Source of the DNA: Candidatus Asgardarchaeum abyssi
Lineage (GTDB): Archaea; Asgardarchaeota; Asgardarchaeia; Asgardarchaeales; Asgardarchaeaceae
DNA length: 10,860 bases
Direction of reading: 5' to 3'
Assembly (NCBI GenBank): GCA_040225955.1
Contig: JBECUL010000065.1
Span: forward strand, 1-10,860
The position numbers were made by a program, and so were the translations under genes. The notes under the pieces were generated by a model. That model worked only from the letters and a program-made list of their open reading frames with translations, made no database searches and was not told the DNA's origin. This document shows, piece after piece, positions 308 through 10,860 of the stretch (its first letter is position 1; every line of letters begins with the position of its first letter).

Positions 308-484
308 ATGGCCGAATTGATGATTTACAAGAGCAAAGTTCAAGAGTTAGCAAAGAAGAAAGGCTTCAAAGTATCAGAGAAATTCTACGATGCCCTTAGC
401 AAAGCCGTTGAAGAGCTTGTAGAAAAAGCAATGAAAAGAGCAGAGGCCGAGGGCAAAAAGACTCTTATGGACAGACACGTTTAA
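308..484 (+). CDS. Archaeal histone-fold protein with truncated alpha3 (face-to-face/HTkC-like histone), 58 aa
   Basis: Manual translation gives MAELMIYKSKVQELAKKKGFKVSEKFYDALSKAVEELVEKAMKRAEAEGKKTLMDRHV*. It shows a KSKVxE alpha1, a (K/R)VS loop 1, a long alpha2 ending KRAxAEG and a (R/K)KT loop 2, and it ends at RHV with almost no alpha3. It has an RBS, a TATA-like element and a T-rich terminator. It is absent from the ORF track, presumably because of its small size. Confidence 0.92.
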   Translation: MAELMIYKSKVQELAKKKGFKVSEKFYDALSKAVEELVEKAMKRAEAEGKKTLMDRHV

Positions 485-6786: not shown

Positions 6787-7368
6787 CTATTGAAGAAGAC
6801 CCATTTTTATATGCTCTTCAACTATCAATTTTCCAATTATTTCAAAAGCCCTAGTGACATTTGTCCCGTACTTTGCACTCGTTTTTATAAATCTTATTCT
6901 AAAATCGTATTTTTCTTCAAGCTCTCCTAAAAAAGTAGCAATCTCAAGATTACGTACGCAATCAAATCCAGAATTATTACATAGATCAGCTTTATTTCCT
7001 ATTACTATAAAAGGCACTCTTCCAGCGTTTGTAATAAGTTCTTTAATCCATTTTTCTAGGTTATATAATGATTCTCGCCTTGTTAAATCAAAAACTGCAA
7101 GAGCTCCTTTAGCTCCACTGTAAAAGAGTGCACGTACAGATTCAAACCTATTTTGCCCAGCCAAATCACTTATTAGGTACTTTATTTTGTAGGTCTTATC
7201 TCTCTCCGGAAAACTAAGAACTACATTCTTTGTAGCGAAATCTGCACCTATGGTCATACTATAGTTAGTAGTAAATTGGTTAAACAAAAATCTATTTTTT
7301 AGGGAGGTCTTTCCAACCCCGCCATCCCCTATGAGAACCAATTTGAATATGAGATTAGCTATCTGCAT
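6787..7368 (-). CDS. Ras-superfamily small GTPase, Rab-like
   Basis: G1 GDGGVGKT, G2 TIGADF, G3 DLAGQ, G4 NKAD and G5 SAK motifs. A GGGTGA RBS precedes the ATG. Confidence 0.93.
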   Translation of the reverse strand: MQIANLIFKLVLIGDGGVGKTSLKNRFLFNQFTTNYSMTIGADFATKNVVLSFPERDKTYKIKYLISDLAGQNRFESVRALFYSGAKGALAVFDLTRRESLYNLEKWIKELITNAGRVPFIVIGNKADLCNNSGFDCVRNLEIATFLGELEEKYDFRIRFIKTSAKYGTNVTRAFEIIGKLIVEEHIKMGLLQ

Positions 7369-7757: not shown

Positions 7758-8504
7758 ATGAGAATAAGAGTCAATTTTATTGCGGTTAACGGGGGACTCT
7801 TACCATATAATTATCAGTATGACATACACGTTATGCTAAGGAATTTGCTAAAAAGTCACTCATCATTTATACCACATGAGTATTTCACATTCTCGTGGCT
7901 GTTCTTTCCTCAAAAATGGACTACTAAAAACCCTAGTGGAATTAAGCTTGTTCCAAATACTAGATTATCGCTCTACATTTCCTCTCCAGACAAGAATTTT
8001 ATGAATAATGTTCTTAACGCATTTCAAAAAACATCTAGAGTTAATCTTGGTGACTTAGTACTAAACGTTCACAGTGCAATACCAGTTGATGATCCGCCCT
8101 TTTCTGAGGAAATGAAATTCAAAACACTCTCCCCAATTTTAATTTCAACCCAGATAAAATCAGAAGGACGAATAAGAGTATGGGATCTATCGCCAAACGA
8201 TGATAAATTCTTTGAACAACTACGTGAGAATCTTATTTGGAAGTATACGTATTATTATGGCAACCCTCCAGAATCAAATCATATAAAAATCAGTAAAATA
8301 TATTGGACAAAATCTAAGAGAATTAGAGTTAGAAACATGTTTCATATTTCTCACTTGATGTCATTTTCAATAATCGGGCATCCAGATTTACTAAGATTTG
8401 CGTATGAATGTGGCTTTGGTGAAAAAAATCATTTTGGCTTCGGTATGGTAACGGTTGATACAAAGAAAGAAAAACAAAAAGTTAAGAAAGAAGAGGAAAA
8501 ATGA
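7758..8504 (+). CDS. cas6: Stand-alone Cas6-family (RAMP) protein
   Basis: LPYNYQY, FTFS, YISSP, TLSPI, LRENL..KY and the C-terminal glycine-rich loop GFGEKNHFGFG. Confidence 0.93.
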   Translation: MRIRVNFIAVNGGLLPYNYQYDIHVMLRNLLKSHSSFIPHEYFTFSWLFFPQKWTTKNPSGIKLVPNTRLSLYISSPDKNFMNNVLNAFQKTSRVNLGDLVLNVHSAIPVDDPPFSEEMKFKTLSPILISTQIKSEGRIRVWDLSPNDDKFFEQLRENLIWKYTYYYGNPPESNHIKISKIYWTKSKRIRVRNMFHISHLMSFSIIGHPDLLRFAYECGFGEKNHFGFGMVTVDTKKEKQKVKKEEEK

Positions 8505-8554: not shown

Positions 8555-9802
8555 TCAGATCTCTCGTAGAGTATTTTCTAATCTACCAATAATTCCTCTT
8601 AAAGACTTATAAAATCCAGGGGTAACTTCCTTTCTTATTAGCGGTTTATTGCAAATCTCACATTTAAAATTTAGATTTGTTGCTCGACTAAAGCTATAAT
8701 ATTCATTACAACTTGGACAGTAATAGTACTCGAGAGATCGAGAGTCTATTATTTCTTTAAGTTTTTCAATTCTACTTCTAATAAATTCAGCTATAAGCCC
8801 CTTTGCATTATTTGGTGTATAGACAACGATATCACCAAAGTCCCCTTTAAGTATCTGACAAAAACCTAATTTTTCGAGATGTAATGCTATCTGGTAGGCA
8901 GTATCTATATCCATATGAAGGTATCGTGCTATTGTTCTGATGGATGTTTGATTTTTCCAAGCAATAAAGTATAATATTTCTCTATCATTTTTACTTAAGA
9001 TCTTTGTTATTTTTCTTAGAAAACGTCTCTTCGTACATTCTTTCACAAAAAATAGTCTACTAGCAACTTTAGGCAGAATAATGATAAATTTATTATAAAT
9101 TCTTTGGAGATTTTTTGAACCAAAAATTTGAATCTCGCAATCCTTAATAGTATGGGAAATTTTCAATTTATTAAAATACTCAGAAATCTGAGAAAGTAAC
9201 TCCTTTGATTCGCTTCTTATGAAACCAGTAGCTTTTTGAGGCTCTTGAACAATAAACTTATTCGAATTTAAATAACCTTCTACTACTTTATAAGTATCTA
9301 AAAACGGTTGAATTTTTCTTTCTTGAATTCTCCATAATGACAAAATTAGTGATGGTGCAGCATGAATTATAACTCGGACTCTTCCTAGCTCCCTCTTTTC
9401 AATACCATACGTAATCCCCAGCTGCCTAAAAACATATTTTTTTAAAAATCTTAAAACTTGAGGTTCAATCAATATTTTAATAGGTTGAGTTATATTTCGC
9501 CTCTCTAATCTGATAGAACTTCCTAGAACAAGACCATAAAAATAGCTCCAGTATTCATTAGGAATTATCGGAAATCTTGTCCACATAATATATGACTTAT
9601 GTATCTTAAAACCAACAACTGGAAAATTAGGATCTACGCTGGAGCTTACATTTTTGAGATACTCATTCACTTCAAGGAGTATATATTTCGCCCTAGAAAA
9701 TAAGTCACTAACATCCTTTCGAATGTATGATTTATTAACTAATACATACACATTCTTATAGGATTTAAGGTCCGTTATGTCGATTCTGCCATTTAAGTCC
9801 AT
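8555..9802 (-). CDS. Putative fusion: degenerate LAGLIDADG (DOD) endonuclease-like domain + TFE/TFIIE-alpha-like wHTH and C4 zinc ribbon, 415 aa
   Basis: Residues ~76-245 resemble intein endonuclease blocks C, E and H (WSYFYGLVLGSS, VVEGYLNSNK, SESKELLSQISEYFNKLKI). Residues ~269-330 look like a wHTH. Residues 359-388 (YYYCPSCNEYYSFSRATNLNFKCEICNKPL) match the TFE zinc-ribbon pattern and are flanked by helical segments. A GGGTG RBS is present. Confidence 0.72.
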   Translation of the reverse strand: MDLNGRIDITDLKSYKNVYVLVNKSYIRKDVSDLFSRAKYILLEVNEYLKNVSSSVDPNFPVVGFKIHKSYIMWTRFPIIPNEYWSYFYGLVLGSSIRLERRNITQPIKILIEPQVLRFLKKYVFRQLGITYGIEKRELGRVRVIIHAAPSLILSLWRIQERKIQPFLDTYKVVEGYLNSNKFIVQEPQKATGFIRSESKELLSQISEYFNKLKISHTIKDCEIQIFGSKNLQRIYNKFIIILPKVASRLFFVKECTKRRFLRKITKILSKNDREILYFIAWKNQTSIRTIARYLHMDIDTAYQIALHLEKLGFCQILKGDFGDIVVYTPNNAKGLIAEFIRSRIEKLKEIIDSRSLEYYYCPSCNEYYSFSRATNLNFKCEICNKPLIRKEVTPGFYKSLRGIIGRLENTLREI

Positions 9803-10010
9803 TATTTAAGCACCCGCGAGATAAGAAGCATTATACTTATTCTTTTTCTTTATTTTATTATTGTTTATTTGTGCTTGTACTAAAAAACTTTTATGGATAC
9901 TTATTATTGCGTCTCTGATAATTGGTCTATATCAATCAAATCAATTTTTATCAAATGTGAATAAACATTAAATGCGAAAAACGACAACGTACATAAATAG
10001 GTGAAAAGAT

Positions 10011-10772
10011 ATGTCATTCGATATACTTGGAGAAATAATAGAAGAAGAAACTAAGGCCAGGACATGTTTTATAGTGGTCGCAACTTAGATATTTTTATCT
10101 CTAAAGATGGAAAAGTACATAGTGGAAAATTTGTAGCAGATAAAAAAGATGAAAGCAGCATAAAAGAGTATTGTAAGTGCTTTAAAGGCACTCGACTTTG
10201 TAGAATCTAAAAGTGGACTTGAGGGGAGTATATACCAACAGCTAAGGGTAGAGAATTTCTTAAAAAGCCGACGACAATAGGTTATGAAATCATCCAATTA
10301 AAAAATCAATGGTAAACCATCAGGTATTTCCATTGTAGAAATCAACTTTCTAGATTTATAAGTGCTGTCGAAAGTAAAGCTATTTTAAGACTCATTGGAA
10401 ATATATAAGTTGAAAGCTCTGGAGACAAGGTGAAATTTGACCCAACCCCATTAACAAGACTTATTGTAGAAGGAGAGGTTATTGAGAAAGACGACTTACG
10501 AAAAGAGATAATCATAAGAATAACGACAATGACGAGCATCCCGAGAGAGATTGCCAAGAATATTATGTCAAAGAACTTGATTTCATCTAGCCTAAATGAT
10601 TCATTACGTTATGTGACAGATGTTCTATATTCAAGGAATATAATGAGGAGGAGCTGTAATAGAGGATGGTAAAATCGTAGGACTTATAACAACTTCGGAA
10701 ATAGCAAAAGCATTAAAGGAGGGATCTTTAGATGCTAAAGTATCAGGCTGTATTAGAAAGGATGTACATGTT
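10011..10772 (+). pseudogene. Degraded wHTH + CBS-domain transcriptional regulator (COG2524-like), truncated by an IS end
   Basis: Fragments in alternating frames join up as SIVSALKALDFVESKSG / EYIPTAKGREFL / GDKVKFDPTPLTRLIVEGEV..SIP..IMSKNLI / GAVIEDGKIVGLITTSEIAKAL..AKVSGCIRKDVHV. Frameshifts fall near 10162, 10225, 10300, 10355 and 10645, with an in-frame TAA at 10406-10408. The 5' boundary (ATG 10011 after AGGTGA) is uncertain. Confidence 0.8.
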
Positions 10773-10860
10773 TTGACCTCCTCCCCGCACTAAAGTGCGG
10801 GGAATCCTAAGATTCCCCGGCGGGGAGGTTCGACCATCCTCCACCGGGAAAAATCCCAGT
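10773..10860 (-). mobile_element. Right end of an IS200/IS605-family (tnpB-type) element or derived MITE, continuing beyond the window
   Basis: Abrupt GC jump at about 10773. The minus strand reads ..GGATTCCCCGCACTTTAGTGCGGGGAGGAGGTCAA, i.e. a subterminal hairpin (TCCCCGCAC-TAAA-GTGCGGGGA, 10782-10803) followed by GGAGGTCAA, as is typical of IS605-group right ends. Confidence 0.8.

Follow-up and report, generated by a model that had tools for sequence, protein, structure and literature searches.

We identify an Asgard archaeal gene that joins the fold of a LAGLIDADG homing endonuclease to a module of the general transcription factor TFE-alpha, a pairing that is real and is maintained by selection in two Asgard groups. 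Most likely the protein serves as a regulator of specific genes, not as a second general factor. The fuller form of this reading, to which we assign a probability of roughly 45%, is that a dead homing endonuclease was domesticated by a single fusion to a duplicate of TFE-alpha, so that the beta-saddle of the former would sit on DNA and the zinc ribbon of the latter on RNA polymerase. If true, this would be the second time, independently of WhiA, that a homing endonuclease was domesticated into a transcription factor. For the window we establish that the fusion falls into two subfamilies, that the window's own subfamily has dropped the clamp contacts, and that the gene is linked, in relatives, to a non-canonical FEN1 paralog.

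Architecture of the fusion protein

The gene occupies positions 8,555 to 9,802 of the window, by which we mean the whole stretch of 10,860 nucleotides analysed, and lies with all of its parts on the minus strand. It is an intact, uninterrupted open reading frame of 415 amino acids, present in a single copy in a genome of 2.6 Mb that is 93% complete. An SD-like GGGTG (9,811 to 9,815, minus strand), whose position varies in other members of the family, stands 8 nt before the ATG, in line with the initial annotation of an intact frame with its own ribosome-binding site. The nearest homologs of the protein carry the label Candidatus Asgardarchaeia.

Sequence profiles matched the protein weakly (LAGLIDADG_3, E 0.049; the TFE family NF004910, E 1.3e-6 over aa 335-392). 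The AlphaFold2 model, built from an 11-row alignment, reached a pLDDT of 89.4 and a pTM of 0.83, and structure comparison recovered both of the folds that had been proposed. From the N-terminus, the protein comprises an accessory alpha/beta domain (aa 1-77; 9,572 to 9,802), a double-motif LAGLIDADG domain of net charge +15 (aa 78-258; 9,029 to 9,571), a TFE-derived winged helix (aa 259-330; 8,813 to 9,028), a long linker helix equivalent to TFE alpha5, to the end of which the alignment with 6pln_A extends (aa 331-357; 8,732 to 8,812), a C4 zinc ribbon (aa 358-392; 8,627 to 8,731), and a terminal helix with the stop codon (aa 393-415; 8,555 to 8,626). By structural alignment the accessory domain is not a Hint domain: 7qsu_A and 1jva_A align from residue 2-3, and its counterpart, in a number of endonucleases both intein-borne and free-standing, is the region that precedes the LAGLIDADG core.

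The endonuclease half lacks its catalytic acids

Residues 79-266 of the model aligned with I-Tsp061I at Z 16.1 (rmsd 3.7 Å, 175 aligned residues), followed by PI-PfuI (Z 15.2), WhiA (14.6) and I-DmoI (14.1). The N-terminal region thus has the LAGLIDADG fold assigned to it, with the two-motif alpha-beta-beta-alpha-beta-beta-alpha arrangement of these endonucleases. The N-terminal profile aligned two stretches, aa 83-95 (helix 1; 9,518 to 9,556) and aa 170-182 (helix 2; 9,257 to 9,295), with motifs 1 and 2 of PI-SceI. This places S95 and N181, by residue numbers counted off the alignment, at D218 and D326, which we take to be the catalytic residues of PI-SceI. Across the family, 12 of 12 members carry S, G, T or N at the motif-1 position, which is never acidic; the motif-2 position is N, K, R, P or S, with D in two of the 12, which are related sequences without the motif-1 acid. 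Both catalytic acids are lost, as had been noticed from the two helices, and the LAGLIDADG half is, judged by its sequence, nuclease-dead. Profile, structure and sequence checks of the protein found no intein end motifs, splicing motifs or Hint domain, in agreement with the earlier view that this stand-alone frame is not an intein.

That the protein is still a nuclease, a mobile element or a chance chimera is therefore very improbable and largely refuted by sequence. The aspartate at the second catalytic position in two members would speak for activity, but the motif-1 acid is missing in every member. The single copy, the absence of intein motifs and the lack of any match to the fusion protein in viral contig and plasmid collections argue against mobility, and a junction that recurs in 15 clusters from independent assemblies argues against a chance chimera.

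The LAGLIDADG domain carries a net charge of +14 to +37 in 12 of 12 members, and the pI is high, at 9.2-10.1, throughout. At ~40% overall identity, K109, E113, E135, R137 and R143 are invariant in the Asgardarchaeia subfamily; they lie on the strands of the first beta-saddle or beside them, with side-chain orientation read from strand register. In I-DmoI, Arg and Glu residues of the saddle read bases (PMC2847234), and the charged invariants would suit a gene-specific regulator with a basic saddle that contacts an extended DNA site close to its target promoters. Against this, the saddle residues differ between the Asgardarchaeia and Helarchaeales subfamilies, which fits different sites and equally no specificity. 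The dead LAGLIDADG domain of WhiA, moreover, makes backbone and protein contacts only, without base contacts, and so serves as a protein-contact scaffold, the motif being read by the HTH (PMC10243135). Since helix 3 of the winged helix in the fusion is variable and often acidic, and hence a poor recognition helix, the evidence favours the beta-saddle as the putative DNA reader. The suggestion that the LAGLIDADG domain reads specific sequence is plausible in itself, but the WhiA comparison and the lack of a target promoter (see below) count against it.

These observations also bear on a rather improbable alternative, a WhiA-like scaffold or general DNA-binding (chromatin) protein, in which the dead domain would hold the DNA backbone or partners and any specificity would come from the winged helix or be absent. 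WhiA itself is a precedent, the basic pI would fit, and so would a set of winged-helix residues (Y278, F279, W282, K283, T290 and Y294) that form a new, invariant patch. The variable, often acidic helix 3 is unlike a recognition helix, however, and the saddle residues that are invariant within the Asgardarchaeia subfamily also count against it.

The TFE half resembles a factor reduced to its stalk anchor

Folded alone, aa 255-415 gave 15 Foldseek matches at E<=0.001 over 164-184 columns, all of them TFE/TFIIE-alpha chains (human, yeast and Thermococcus), which ranked above MarR-type proteins. The order of TFE-alpha, from wHTH through linker helix and C4 zinc ribbon to terminal helix, is present over aa 259-415. 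The winged helix alone cannot be distinguished from generic wHTH domains (Z 9.8 to TFE versus 9-10), so it is the whole arrangement, together with the profile matches, that supports the assignment to TFE. With a profile of the family, canonical TFE is retrieved from >200 Asgard genomes; the best matches cover winged helix and ribbon, and the best non-self match in the window's own genome is the canonical tfe. The TFE family cut-offs are missed by a wide distance (27.7 versus 180 bits for NF004910; 20.2 versus 149.5 for TIGR00373). C362, C365, C381 and C384, already named as the ribbon cysteines, are confirmed and are invariant in 12 of 12 aligned members. The C-terminus is, as the initial annotation held, a TFE/TFIIE-alpha module and not a generic HTH with an unrelated zinc finger.

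We then compared the residues by which TFE touches the polymerase. In T. kodakarensis TFE, the clamp is contacted by R51, R52, Y55, D59, F65, K66, R67, W75, Y78 and R81, and the stalk by Y114, Y115, F127, D128, M131, F135 and Y147; the ribbon-stalk contact is a rigid anchor, and the wing tryptophan W75 contacts the non-template strand (Jun et al. 2020, PMC7704642). R51, R52, Y55, R67, W75 and Y78 are 92-100% conserved among 37 canonical TFEs. The window protein has Y303, Q304, L307 and I317 at clamp positions, with Y303 in place of R51 and L307 in place of Y55. None of the seven Asgardarchaeia-type members keeps R51 or Y55; R52, the K66/R67 strand end and W75 are also lost in this subfamily, and its wing is ~6 aa shorter. 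The eight Helarchaeales-type members all keep R51 and Y55, and seven have Tyr at the F65 position. The wing tryptophan is absent from all 15 members of both subfamilies. Within the winged helix, conservation is lowest in helix 3.

On the stalk side, four of six hydrophobics are kept: Y359, Y360, F371 and F379, corresponding to Y114, Y115, F127 and F135. The M131 and Y147 positions are changed, and they are variable in canonical Asgard TFEs also. Across the 15 members, the F135 position is always Phe, the F127 position always Phe or Tyr, and the Y115 position aromatic in 13. The window protein therefore looks like a TFE in which the stalk anchor is retained and the clamp and bubble contacts have been discarded. 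The ribbon is a rigid anchor in TFE (PMC7704642), and the kept aromatics support a gene-specific regulator; against this, they may be merely structural, so that we can only infer binding to RNA polymerase. A predicted complex of the linker-ribbon-helix part with Rpo7 of the same genome scored 0.13, where the mark was 0.32, and speaks neither for nor against the contact.

The idea that the TFE part still functions as TFE is not supported for the window subfamily, which has lost R51, R52, Y55, the K66/R67 strand end and W75. Of the phrase 'sequence-specific basal factor', fusion and paralogy stand, but the residues for the clamp and the melted strand do not. For the gene-specific regulator, we propose that the zinc ribbon binds the Rpo4/7 stalk in the manner of TFE, thereby recruiting or retaining the polymerase. 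In the window subfamily, with the winged helix off the clamp and the melted strand, the polymerase would be tethered and the bubble not opened; the Helarchaeales members retain the clamp helix. The two subfamilies thus amount to a natural experiment, with the clamp helix kept in one and only the stalk-facing ribbon in the other, which lets the recruitment half of TFE be told apart from its melting half.

It is unlikely that the protein is instead a full alternative TFE, delivered to chosen promoters and stimulating open-complex formation there, although this role is more plausible for the Helarchaeales members, which retain R51, Y55 and mostly an aromatic residue at position 65 (F65/Y65). The complete TFE architecture would agree with it. 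The loss of R51, R52, Y55 and W75 together in the window subfamily would not, nor would the poor conservation of helix 3 or a wing tryptophan missing from 15 of 15 members.

Two collinear subfamilies

The fusion is found in 15 full-length clusters of Asgardarchaeia and Helarchaeales from independent assemblies, and so in more than the one assembly in which it was first noticed. Direct searches gave seven full-length 90% clusters of the window type, at 39-55% identity. Iterated searches of 400 Asgard genomes added a second subfamily of ~440 aa, present in six of the seven genomes of three neighbouring families whose named records are mostly Helarchaeota, and an additional search gave two further full-length clusters of it. 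The remaining 393 of the 400 genomes, many of which are incomplete, yielded no member of it. Both domains align collinearly between the two subfamilies (HHalign 99.4%, E 2.9e-21, 327 columns), which have the same dead LAGLIDADG motifs.

A separate canonical tfe is present in seven of seven carrier genomes (in the window's own genome at G000:C40), consistent with the initial description of the fusion as a paralog. We read dN/dS from the two closest pairs, farther pairs being near or past saturation: it was 0.052 for P0004/P0016, with dS near saturation, and 0.071 for P0005/P0012, with 0.061 in the LAGLIDADG part. Values of 0.05-0.07 in close pairs indicate purifying selection. Collinear subfamilies, a retained canonical tfe and low dN/dS together show that the fusion is old and maintained and is no assembly artefact, and, with both folds and the catalytic loss, they favour a gene-specific regulator.

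Most likely the two subfamilies share one fusion origin in an ancestral Asgard archaeon, to judge from their alignment, and we take this as part of the best explanation. In a tree of TFE modules each subfamily formed a 100/100 clade; the two were not joined in the best tree, where branches are long, and a single clade was not rejected (p-AU 0.50).

Weak N-terminal matches elsewhere in the phylum (L097-L104) left the TFE part of the profile unmatched and were not counted as members; the four short sequences among them that were read retain acidic LAGLIDADG motifs. One Helarchaeales family has a third TFE paralog, stand-alone and divergent, beside the canonical tfe and the fusion (L025/L149 at G158:C172, L150 at G157:C99, L151 at G156:C314), and L025, on a long branch, clusters among the fusion modules of Helarchaeales (97/97). 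In family f19, canonical-sized TFEs form a long-branch clade (L022-L024, L031, L040), several of them without the usual clamp-helix or wing motif.

Relation to known systems

With TFE-alpha and TFIIE-alpha (PF02002, NF004910, TIGR00373; PDB 6kf4_G, 1q1h, 5gpy_A, 7o72_W) the protein shares wHTH, long helix, C4 ribbon, terminal helix and stalk-facing ribbon aromatics. It differs by 258 extra N-terminal residues, by scores far under the family cut-offs, by the loss of clamp helix residues and wing Trp in the window subfamily, and by its coexistence with a canonical tfe.

A parallel in concept is WhiA/DUF199 (PDB 3hyi, 8dy9), a domesticated endonuclease that activates transcription with a dead double LAGLIDADG domain, a linker helix and a C-terminal HTH-type domain (PMC10243135). 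WhiA is bacterial, however, and its sigma-4-like HTH reads GACAC and comes without a zinc ribbon, whereas the fusion ends in a TFE-type winged helix and ribbon. The likeness is one of structure only, at 11-13% identity, and the fusion family is closer in shape to I-Tsp061I and PI-PfuI. None of the 12 members matched the profiles WhiA_N, LAGLIDADG_WhiA or HTH_WhiA. The earlier suggestion of a domestication independent of WhiA is supported. I-Tsp061I, I-DmoI, PI-PfuI and PI-SceI share the two-motif fold and the basic beta-saddle; unlike them, the fusion has neither catalytic acid and no intron or intein host, and is single-copy and vertically kept.

Archaea specialise TBP, TFB and TFS by duplication. 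In Sulfolobales, TFB3, a basal-factor paralog induced by damage and acting as an activator in trans, and TFS4 are, like the fusion, general-factor duplicates with partial loss of function that may regulate a subset of genes (PMC7289017). They are stand-alone proteins with no DNA-reading domain of their own; together with WhiA, TFB3 provides a precedent for a gene-specific regulator. In its working the fusion would be WhiA crossed with TFB3 or TFS4; it is a member of none of these groups, and falls outside what defines a TFE, a homing endonuclease or a WhiA.

The literature searched, which takes in few subscription papers, contained no description of a LAGLIDADG-TFE fusion, of a TFE paralog comparable to TFB3 or TFS4, or of one with its own DNA-binding domain. 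It offered nothing on Helarchaeales homing endonucleases and, by title and abstract, nothing relevant on Asgard LAGLIDADG proteins. Within that literature the architecture is, as first supposed, undescribed. Predicted models of uncharacterised archaeal LAGLIDADG_3 plus HTH clusters in the ESM Atlas align over residues 3-415 at TM 0.53-0.58, and such clusters, of 299, 80, 62 and 55 members, are mostly from Nanobdellota, Iainarchaeota and Aenigmatarchaeota (DPANN). Compared by predicted models alone, they could widen or dilute the claim of novelty.

The upstream region and a candidate operator

A putative BRE/TATA-like element (9,878 to 9,895, minus strand), read by eye from the archaeal promoter consensus, precedes the gene and is similar in the ortholog of 55% identity. 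An alignment of the upstream regions of eight members showed BRE/TATA-like words only, and a sigma-70 scan is uninformative for archaea. About 25 bp upstream of the promoter-like element lies a 16-bp pseudo-palindrome (9,921 to 9,936), a candidate operator. The nearest ortholog has a perfect palindrome at a similar upstream distance (L011:1808-1823; 12/16 identity). The pseudo-palindrome could be due to chance or be a property of the divergent gene.

A regulon search with the palindrome in the window's own genome gave 1, 4 and 37 intergenic matches at 0, 1 and 2 mismatches, versus ~0.1, 1.4 and 35 in Markov controls, the sole exact match being the seed itself, and no match was found upstream of the fusion genes of other lineages. 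No target site, promoter or regulon was found in the genome, a result that counts against the gene-specific regulator.

The same palindrome would suit a site-specific repressor, or anti-TFE, which we consider unlikely: bound to DNA, the protein would fill the ribbon site of TFE on the stalk, leave the clamp unopened and block canonical TFE. Retention of the stalk face with loss of the clamp and wing residues fits this, and TFS4 is a precedent for a basal-factor paralog turned inhibitor (PMC7289017). On the other hand, the R51 and Y55 positions kept in eight of eight Helarchaeales members suggest a productive, TFE-like ancestry, and nothing indicates the sign of regulation.

In one marine-sediment metatranscriptome, two short contigs lie on the gene (8,653 to 8,877 and 9,013 to 9,196, depth 2); coverage was also seen on other stretches, including the broken gene upstream, a pattern that does not amount to evidence of transcription. 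That broken gene, at 10,011 to 10,790 (plus strand), encodes an HrcA-type regulator with winged-helix and CBS domains and is disrupted by a number of stops and frameshifts. It runs divergently to the fusion gene, with the intergenic region in common; it is intact in L011:442-1332 (296 aa) and in two pieces in L019. The contig end (~10,770 to 10,860) has a GC-rich, hairpin-like sequence that may resemble an IS200/IS605 end.

Gene neighbourhood and a possible link to DNA repair

Targets are the weakest step of the gene-specific regulator reading; what lies around the gene in relatives hints at genes of DNA repair. In three other Asgardarchaeia lineages, the fusion stands in the order FEN1-like, XPD, fusion and convergent RadA, and a FEN1-like gene lies within ~3 kb of it in five of five assessable Helarchaeales genomes. 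One Helarchaeales family also has XPD and a Ski2/Hel308-like helicase nearby; one further Helarchaeales contig has no FEN1-like gene in the 4.7 kb upstream of the fusion. As the carrier genomes are related, these counts are not independent. The FEN1-like neighbours all fall outside the canonical FEN1 clade (99% SH-aLRT). Linkage in two classes suggests an ancestral association of the fusion with DNA repair.

The link is lost in the window itself, a point against the preferred reading. Around the fusion gene, in synteny conserved with the 55% ortholog, are Cas6, a small GTPase, an M17 aminopeptidase and pantothenate/CoA-pathway genes, with no repair genes in the window, and the two FEN1 genes of the genome both belong to the canonical clade.

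Eukaryotic TFIIE recruits XPD-containing TFIIH. By analogy the fusion could be a repair adaptor, though we doubt it: the saddle would bind DNA that is damaged, branched or opened into a bubble, while the polymerase would be linked through the TFE module to the FEN1/XPG paralog and XPD. The recurrent gene order and a neighbour that is always a non-canonical FEN1 paralog encourage this view. The linkage is absent from the window lineage, however, the paralog also occurs in some genomes without the fusion, and linkage among related carriers fits a regulator of those genes, or inherited synteny, equally well. A still bolder combination, for which the odds are low, is an Asgard chimera in which the endonuclease domain gives a TFE copy a DNA address and directs the polymerase to the repair module (FEN1/XPG paralog, XPD, RadA) or links them physically. 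If such a repair-module reading were true, it would mirror in archaea the TFIIE-TFIIH(XPD)-XPG connection of eukaryotes, with promoter selection built into the basal factor. Should the fusion, as our preferred gene-specific regulator, bring the polymerase to chosen sites, it would offer a new way of choosing promoters, and this in the nearest lineage to eukaryotes.

The non-canonical FEN1/XPG-family paralog has a shorter I-region; besides Asgardarchaeia and Helarchaeales, at least one further family of Asgard archaea carries it (L056:6937-7899, L012:118-1083, L051:2757-3740, L108, L110-L114, L141-L143). Another conserved family is found near the fusion at four Helarchaeales loci (L052:12130-12966, L086:96-1895, L087:58-960, L089:2398-4914); its reading as a VirB4-like ATPase was dropped, as the two members scanned had no Pfam match at E<=0.001. 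The Cas6 gene of the window (7,758 to 8,504, plus strand; TIGR01877 above cut-off), the only cas gene there, has a counterpart near the ortholog (L011:5529-6347). Two further genes of the window are typical of Asgard archaea, a Ras/Rab-like small GTPase (6,787 to 7,368, minus strand) and a short histone-fold protein (308 to 484, plus strand).
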